DNA from: Escherichia coli | GTDB lineage: Bacteria; Pseudomonadota; Gammaproteobacteria; Enterobacterales; Enterobacteriaceae | Length of the DNA: 64,000 nucleotides | NCBI RefSeq assembly: GCF_046105845.1 | Contig: NZ_CP151004.1 | Direction: 5' to 3' (one strand) | Shown here: positions 30,144-31,700 of the stretch, piece by piece | How the letters are laid out: every line of letters starts with the position of its first letter | How positions within the stretch are numbered: position 1 is the stretch's first letter | The notes under the pieces: generated by a model | Told to the model about the DNA's origin: nothing | The model's database searches: none | Seen by the model: the letters and a program-made list of their open reading frames with translations, nothing else | Program-made: the position numbers and the translations under genes

Positions 30144-31700
30144 TTGATCCCGGACGTATCACAGGCGCTGGCCTGGCTGGAAAAACATCCTCAGGCGTTA
30201 AAGGGGATACAGCGTGGGCTGGAACGCGAAACTTTGCGTGTTAATGCTGATGGCACACTGGCAACAACAGGTCATCCTGAAGCATTAGGTTCCGCACTGA
30301 CGCACAAATGGATTACTACCGATTTTGCGGAAGCATTGCTGGAATTCATTACACCAGTGGATGGTGATATTGAACATATGTTGACCTTTATGCGCGATCT
30401 GCATCGTTATACGGCGCGCAATATGGGCGATGAGCGGATGTGGCCGTTAAGTATGCCATGCTACATCGCAGAAGGTCAGGACATCGAACTGGCACAGTAC
30501 GGCACTTCTAACACCGGACGCTTTAAAACGCTGTACCGTGAAGGGCTGAAAAATCGCTACGGCGCGCTGATGCAAACCATTTCCGGCGTGCACTACAATT
30601 TCTCTTTACCAATGGCATTCTGGCAAGCGAAGTGCGGTGATATCTCGGGCGCTGATGCCAAAGAGAAAATTTCTGCGGGCTATTTCCGCGTTATCCGCAA
30701 TTACTATCGTTTCGGTTGGGTCATTCCTTATCTGTTTGGCGCGTCTCCGGCGATTTGTTCTTCTTTCCTGCAAGGAAAACCAACGTCGCTGCCGTTTGAG
30801 AAAACCGAGTGCGGTATGTATTACCTGCCGTATGCGACCTCTCTTCGTTTGAGTGATCTCGGCTATACCAATAAATCGCAAAGCAATCTTGGTATTACCT
30901 TCAACGATCTTTACGAGTACGTAGCGGGCCTTAAACAGGCAATCAAAACGCCATCGGAAGAGTACGCGAAGATTGGCATTGAGAAAGATGGTAAGAGGCT
31001 GCAAATCAACAGCAACGTGCTGCAGATTGAAAACGAACTGTACGCGCCGATTCGTCCAAAACGCGTTACCCGCAGCGGCGAGTCGCCTTCTGATGCGCTG
31101 TTACGTGGCGGCATTGAATATATTGAAGTGCGTTCGCTGGACATCAACCCATTCTCGCCGATTGGTGTAGATGAACAGCAGGTGCGATTCCTCGACCTGT
31201 TTATGGTCTGGTGTGCGCTGGCTGATGCACCGGAAATGAGCAGTAAAGAACTTGCCTGTACACGCGTTAACTGGAACCGGGTGATCCTCGAAGGTCGCAA
31301 ACCGGGCCTGACGCTGGGTATCGGCTGCGAAACCGCGCAGTTCCCGTTACCGCAGGTGGGTAAAGATCTGTTCCGCGATCTGAAACGCGTTGCGCAAACG
31401 CTGGATAGCATTAACGGCGGCGAAGCGTATCAGAAAGTGTGTGATGAACTGGTCGCCTGCTTCGATAATCCCGATCTGACTTTCTCTGCCCGTATCTTAA
31501 GGTCTATGATTGATACTGGTATTGGCGGAACAGGCAAAGCGTTTGCTGAAGCGTACCGTAATCTGCTGCGTGAAGAGCCGTTGGAAATTCTGCGCGAAGA
31601 GGATTTTGTAGCCGAGCGCGAGGCGTCTGAACGCCGTCAGCAGGAAATGGAAGCCGCTGATACCGAACCGTTTGCGGTGTGGCTGGAAAAACACGCCTGA
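30144..31700 (+). CDS. gshA: Glutamate--cysteine ligase
   Basis: 518 aa; reading frame begins at a TTG codon (30144..30146) preceded by gggagg SD. Confidence 0.93.

Follow-up and report, generated by a model that had tools for sequence, protein, structure and literature searches.

The gshA gene of Escherichia coli starts at a weak UUG codon that is largely retained, with its surrounding sequence, across Enterobacteriaceae

The gshA locus of Escherichia coli raises the question of whether translation truly begins at a TTG codon and, if so, what keeps a weak start there. The stretch of DNA analysed here (the window, 64,000 nucleotides) contained a TTG-initiated reading frame for glutamate–cysteine ligase at 30144–31700 (+), encoding 518 amino acids plus stop; RefSeq and the list of open reading frames (ORFs) gave identical coordinates. 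The sequence around the start (window 29800–30500) read gacaggcGGGAGGtcaatTTGatcccggac, also given as gattttgacaggcGGGAGGtcaatTTGatcccggacgtatca. The initiation codon occupied 30144–30146 (+) and was preceded by the Shine–Dalgarno (SD) sequence GGGAGG at 30133–30138 (+), with a 5-nt spacer (tcaat). The best match to the anti-SD, taken as the complement of the 16S rRNA 3' end, was GGAGGT at 30134–30139. The frame was closed by an in-frame TAA ten codons upstream (30114–30116, +). The nine codons between this stop and the TTG (AAC GAT TTT GAC AGG CGG GAG GTC AAT) contained no ATG, GTG or TTG and no near-cognate start, and the TTG was the first start codon past the TAA. A first-pass annotation, made from the letters alone, had placed the start of the gshA frame at this TTG, as the sole in-frame start yielding 518 residues, behind a GGGAGG SD; codon, frame and SD were read directly from the sequence as it had described them. 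The conserved ORF has this TTG as its earliest start codon, with an SD at functional spacing. The motif by itself is statistically unremarkable: GGAGG-N3–8-TTG had 6 matches in the window, against 9.75 ± 3.1 expected from shuffles. Since the motif was not enriched, it was not used as evidence by itself, and the weight of the start call comes from the 518-codon ORF, homology and conservation.

The predicted protein aligned from residue 1 to 518 with residues 1 to 518 of PDB entries 1V4G, 1VA6, 2D32 and 2D33 (E = 0), and the differences were the engineered Cys→Ser positions of the crystallised protein and one K/S position. The crystallised sequence (1V4G) begins MIPDVSQ. The NCBIfam equivalog TIGR01434 scored 916.6 bits (cut-off 393.3), with profile positions 1–512 on residues 6–517, so that the N-terminus of the family coincides with the TTG start. 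By homology, the gene named gshA in the first-pass annotation is E. coli glutamate–cysteine ligase GshA of the proteobacterial type (TIGR01434), and its near-identity to the characterised enzyme suggests that it would catalyse the ATP-dependent ligation of Glu and Cys. Compared with E. coli K-12 gshA (b2688; UniProt GSH1_ECOLI; PDB 1V4G), it is the same gene with the same length of 518 amino acids, N-terminus, TTG and GGGAGG; the 90 nt around the start matched exactly, and only strain-level polymorphisms were found.

The concern that a non-ATG start is easily mis-annotated is justified in general. At gshA it is no problem, because all RefSeq records checked use the TTG; the three inspected were AST215, K-12 MG1655 (b2688; 2814883–2816439, minus strand) and MLI104K1. 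A 2.1-kb region containing the start was 95–99% identical to most E. coli genomes. Of 5,426 complete E. coli genomes, 5,424 carried it once, and each time it was annotated as yqaB-yqaA-gshA. The gene order in the window, yqaB-yqaA-gshA-micA-luxS, was that of the annotated AST215 and K-12 regions, with luxS at 31850–32365 (ORF list). The MicA sRNA gene (31710–31781, −; Rfam RF00078, 83.9 bits) lay 10 nt past the gshA stop, in opposite orientation. In published CsrA CLIP data, one peak covers both the gshA 3' end and the MicA region. The TTG start of gshA is thus correctly annotated, and it is already published. Watanabe et al. reportedly described it as early as 1986.

Sakamoto et al. (2015), who cited Watanabe et al. 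1986 (NAR 14:4393) for the gshA gene, tested UUG as its initiation codon by mutation (PMC4405209). In a GshA-LacZ fusion carrying 38 N-terminal residues, polyamines raised synthesis 2.4-fold. Changing UUG to AUG increased basal synthesis 3.0-fold and lowered the polyamine stimulation from 2.4-fold to 1.1-fold, and with an ATG-started gshA growth under tellurite stress was better when polyamines were absent (PMC4405209). The reporter result is that the UUG codon controls output, which leaves room for minor initiation elsewhere. UUG starts approximately 3% of E. coli genes and initiates at 10–100% of the AUG level (bioRxiv 10.1101/063800), and gshA has been counted among the genes whose initiation codon is inefficient and whose SD stands at its normal position (PMC7177335). 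No mention of gshA was found in the supplements of the TRAINSPOTTER N-terminomics paper. Since the 90-nt initiation region of the window is the common E. coli sequence, the K-12 polyamine result should transfer, and polyamine stimulation of gshA should hold for the gene studied here. Taken together, gshA almost certainly initiates at the UUG at 30144–30146, where a strong SD combined with a weak codon would give low basal, polyamine-responsive synthesis.

Mechanistically, the strong and optimally spaced SD (GGAGGU, 4–5 nt upstream of the UUG) would recruit the 30S subunit, and initiator fMet-tRNA would decode UUG with a first-position mismatch. Residue 1 would then be Met, and AUG would be the more efficient start by several-fold. 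A UUG of this weakness would hold basal GshA synthesis low and responsive to polyamines, which promote the binding of fMet-tRNA to UUG and GUG codons. A polyamine response through the UUG makes gshA a class 2 gene of the polyamine modulon, the class with inefficient UUG or GUG codons (cya, cra, spoT, uvrY, frr and gshA). The gene is a named member, described as stimulated in translation through its UUG with the SD at the normal position (PMC4405209, PMC7177335). The modulon publications did not mention a family-wide non-AUG start of gshA or a cross-genus invariance of approximately 60 nt around it. The TTG sets the amount of the enzyme that catalyses the first and rate-limiting step of glutathione synthesis, and it matters for annotation quality and for the engineering of glutathione overproduction; this much is established knowledge.

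What is added here is the family-wide comparison of the weak start and of the region in which it lies. A scan with one genome per species yielded 53 loci, 51 of which covered the GshA N-terminus, from genera that include Escherichia, Citrobacter, Kluyvera, Enterobacter, Lelliottia, Buttiauxella, Cedecea, Siccibacter, Kosakonia, Phytobacter, Superficieibacter and Tatumella, and GshA identity was 64–99%. In these 51 species-level Enterobacteriaceae genomes, the homologous start codon was TTG in 49, GTG in two and ATG in none; the two GTG-start loci were the most distant (72% and 64% identity). Metagenome contigs were scanned with a DNA pattern built to exclude the E. coli-type sequence, and the six diverged relatives found this way started with GTG (four), TTG (one) and ATG (one). 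Over all 58 sequences, the counts were 51 TTG, six GTG and one ATG. Of the 49 TTG-start genomes, 48 had the SD GGGAGG unchanged, and the remaining one lacked one G (locus L044). The sole relative found with an ATG start (L058, metagenome contig Ga0302347_1001953, match 11007–11041, −; 84% identity) had a weakened SD, GGGAGA in place of GGGAGG (GGGAGATCACT versus GGGAGGTCAAT). This one sequence suggests a compensation between codon and SD strength.

Within E. coli, the 90 nt at 30114–30203 were found exactly in 5,403 of 5,424 complete genomes. Versions of this region in which only the start codon was changed to ATG or GTG had no match among the complete E. coli genomes, and the most divergent E. 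coli match inspected still had TTG. At the protein level, R24, G25, E27, R28 and E29 were invariant in the GshA alignment, so a protein begun at any later start would lack these conserved residues. The glutamates of this GLERE motif are metal ligands in the GshA crystal structure.

Conservation of a non-ATG start is not proof of selection for weakness by itself, since the neighbouring yqaA began with GTG in each of the relatives compared (46 of 46); near gshA, a conserved non-ATG start is therefore nothing out of the ordinary. The weak gshA start is kept family-wide and lies within a frozen region of approximately 60 nt, which argues for selection on the low initiation rate and against mere accident. 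We infer that natural selection keeps the gshA codon weak, which would set or regulate GshA output. A comparable case is the GTG start of lacI, also a weak start conserved across genera of Enterobacteriaceae, which sets the expression level of that gene (PMC11445065). The two differ in that lacI encodes a regulator of carbohydrate use, whereas gshA encodes a biosynthetic enzyme.

Four in-frame codons could be proposed as later starts, namely TTG at codon 31 (30234–30236, +), which is the first downstream alternative, TTG at codon 65 (30336, +), GTG at codon 72 (30357, +) and ATG at codon 79 (30378–30380, +), which is the first downstream ATG and the rival that the first-pass annotation had named. 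Their existence in the gshA frame, and the general preference of gene finders for ATG, would be reasons to suspect that the 518-residue model is over-extended. None of the four was preceded by an SD-like sequence. Codon 31 was TTG in only 10 of the 51 species and follows the invariant R24-G25-x-E27-R28-E29, and it was rejected as a start. A start at codon 79 was likewise rejected, as it would delete 78 residues, all of which are present in the crystallised protein and of which residues 6–78 correspond to TIGR01434 positions 1–73. Residues 1–30 were strongly conserved as protein, position 1 of the family profile falls on residue 6, and the crystallised GshA begins with MIPDVSQ, upstream of all four candidates. 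Mutation of the upstream UUG also shifted reporter output 3-fold. Together, these observations effectively refute a downstream start. The other alternative lies directly beside the TTG: the near-cognate ATC of codon 2 (30147–30149) is in frame, lies 8 nt from the SD, which is an acceptable spacing, and was conserved in 50 of 51 sequences, so that it could in principle give a GshA of 517 residues. However, near-cognates such as AUC initiate at only about 1–2% of AUG, compared with 10–100% for UUG (bioRxiv 10.1101/063800), and neither the 3-fold rise nor the lost polyamine effect after the UUG to AUG change is expected if the UUG is unused. The conservation of the ATC is part of a wider invariant block and not specific to this codon. 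Initiation there is therefore extremely improbable.

The block that includes this UUG extends from position −20 to +40 (30124–30183, +) and comprises the SD, the TTG and codons 2–13, with the sequence GACAGGCGGGAGGTCAAT TTG ATC CCG GAC GTA TCA CAG GCG CTG GCC TGG CTG GAA. In an alignment from −160 to +120, most of the block's columns were conserved to at least 95%, and the block was nearly invariant across genera of Enterobacteriaceae whose GshA proteins are 78–93% identical. Synonymous-codon entropy, computed among sequences sharing the majority amino acid, was 0.37 bits for gshA codons 2–17, against a gene mean of 1.09 and 0.88–1.43 in other 15-codon windows. In the same loci, the first 15 codons of luxS, yqaA and yqaB gave 0.95, 1.21 and 1.01, respectively. 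As these three genes showed no dip, the dip is specific to gshA and is neither a general 5'-end effect nor a sampling artefact. Judged from the alignment, this near-invariance of approximately 60 nt around the start is the new point of the present analysis. We further infer that the block belongs to the same translational control region as the UUG.

One explanation for the invariance would be that the TTG is part of a dedicated cis-regulatory RNA element on which, and not on the codon alone, selection acts; it could be a hairpin sequestering both SD and start codon or a site for an sRNA or protein. Besides the near-invariance and the low synonymous entropy, two hairpins predicted both by minimum free energy (MFE) and as RNAalifold consensus speak for it. 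A weak one, CGGGAggUCAauuUGAUCCCG (30132–30152, +; −6.2 kcal/mol), is predicted to pair the SD with codons 2–3 and to enclose the start codon. The other, CAGGC-gcug-GCCUG (CAGGCgcugGCCUG; 30162–30175, +; −9.3 kcal/mol), covers codons 7–11, and the variation among species fell mainly in its loop and closing pair. Comparison across species gave these folds little backing, however. Only one of 19 predicted pairs showed a compensatory change (GC to AU, in the hairpin of codons 7–11 of a single sequence), with a covariation term of +0.08; as nearly every predicted pair was invariant, covariation is essentially absent. The fold of the leader was no more stable than that of shuffled sequences (z = −0.63). 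In 600 synonymous recodings of codons 2–17, the ensemble energy was the same (the real sequence was at approximately the 50th percentile), as was the energy for opening the SD. A mild trend was seen only for opening −20 to +20 (11.5 versus 15.5 ± 2.7 kcal/mol), where 6% of the recodings were at or below the real value. These values leave the block short of the compensatory pairs or excess stability by which a structured cis-regulatory RNA is recognised.

The evidence for a trans-acting partner was similarly divided. In the supplement of an Hfq-CLASH study (PMC7213987), a leader fragment with exactly the sequence AUUUUGACAGGCGGGAGGUCAAUUUG / ATTTTGACAGGCGGGAGGTCAATTTG occurred in repeated chimeras; it corresponds to window 30121–30147 (+) and K-12 2816436–2816462. 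The chimeras inspected were single reads with the non-sRNA partners oppA and gatB, which counts against a regulatory site, and an excerpt of the same supplement gives a further chimera with the initiator tRNA gene metY (PMC7213987). The constant 5' end of the fragment might be the 5' end of the transcript or an Hfq footprint, and the chimeras are a weak lead to the function of the block. Rfam had no match at the block, MicA being the only one in the neighbourhood. A CsrA site was considered and rejected, as the published CLIP peaks lie at +152 to +243 and at the gshA 3' end rather than in the initiation region, and the effect on gshA translation was scored as not significant in that dataset. 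No ORF of at least 20 amino acids overlapped the block, either in the other frames or on the complementary strand. Only conservation thus speaks for a regulatory RNA element at this place, and we regard such an element as possible but rather doubtful. A weak UUG retained by selection remains our reading of the start itself.

Structure, overlapping ORFs, Rfam and CsrA CLIP give no explanation of the block, which represents a modest lead that is cheaply testable. A more specific, and still less probable, hypothesis would be that 30124–30183 forms a previously undescribed, sequence-specific operator of gshA translation, either as the place where an sRNA, Hfq or some other factor binds or as a structure that responds to a ligand or to polyamines. 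Such an operator would couple glutathione synthesis to a signal beyond polyamines, and the weak UUG would be kept as the slow initiation step on which it acts. The frozen block is in any case a compact candidate region through which glutathione synthesis may be further controlled after transcription.

Two further elements were considered at and upstream of the block. The TTGACA at 30124–30129 was rejected as a −35 element, as no −10 element follows downstream and many genera have TCGACA instead. In the alignment, a separate island of conservation, ACA(A/G)TTATGCT (30100–30110, +), lay upstream of the main block, with a variable AT-rich stretch between the two. The TATGCT within it (30105–30110) is a plausible −10 element of a gshA promoter and, if used as such, would imply a leader of approximately 25–30 nt, although a simple promoter scan called neither the island nor this hexamer. 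The ATG inside this putative −10 element also opens a 13-codon upstream ORF (ATG CTA ATT AAA ... TCA ATT TGA; 30106–30147, +), whose TGA overlaps the gshA TTG in E. coli (UUGA). In Buttiauxella, some Cedecea and related loci, a 1-nt indel puts this ATG into the gshA frame, so the upstream ORF is not conserved. It was rejected as a regulatory candidate and is probably not functional.

Several observations were made in the surroundings of gshA. The upstream genes yqaB (29080–29646) and yqaA (29643–30071) lie on the same strand (+), and the GTG start of yqaA overlaps the yqaB stop (29643–29646). Between luxS and emrB, the window carried a two-gene insert (32416 to approximately 34900, −) that is absent from K-12 and AST215. 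It encodes a protein of 370 residues, annotated as 'ATP-binding protein' and with an AAA_33 kinase-like domain at its C-terminus, together with an 'RNA ligase family protein', and may be an RNA-repair-type accessory cassette. About 995 of 5,422 E. coli genomes covered at least 80% of the query and appear to carry the insert. In the serV-argVYZQ tRNA cluster, ARAGORN called an antisense tRNA-Arg(tcg) at 28188–28259, which is probably spurious. The cluster contained two copies of a 91-nt element (88% identical; 28255–28378 and 28811–28932, +), each followed by a fragment resembling the 3' end of tRNA-Arg (AATCCTCCCGGATGCACCA). With the element and this fragment in between, the first two tRNA-Arg genes are 275 nt apart instead of 140.
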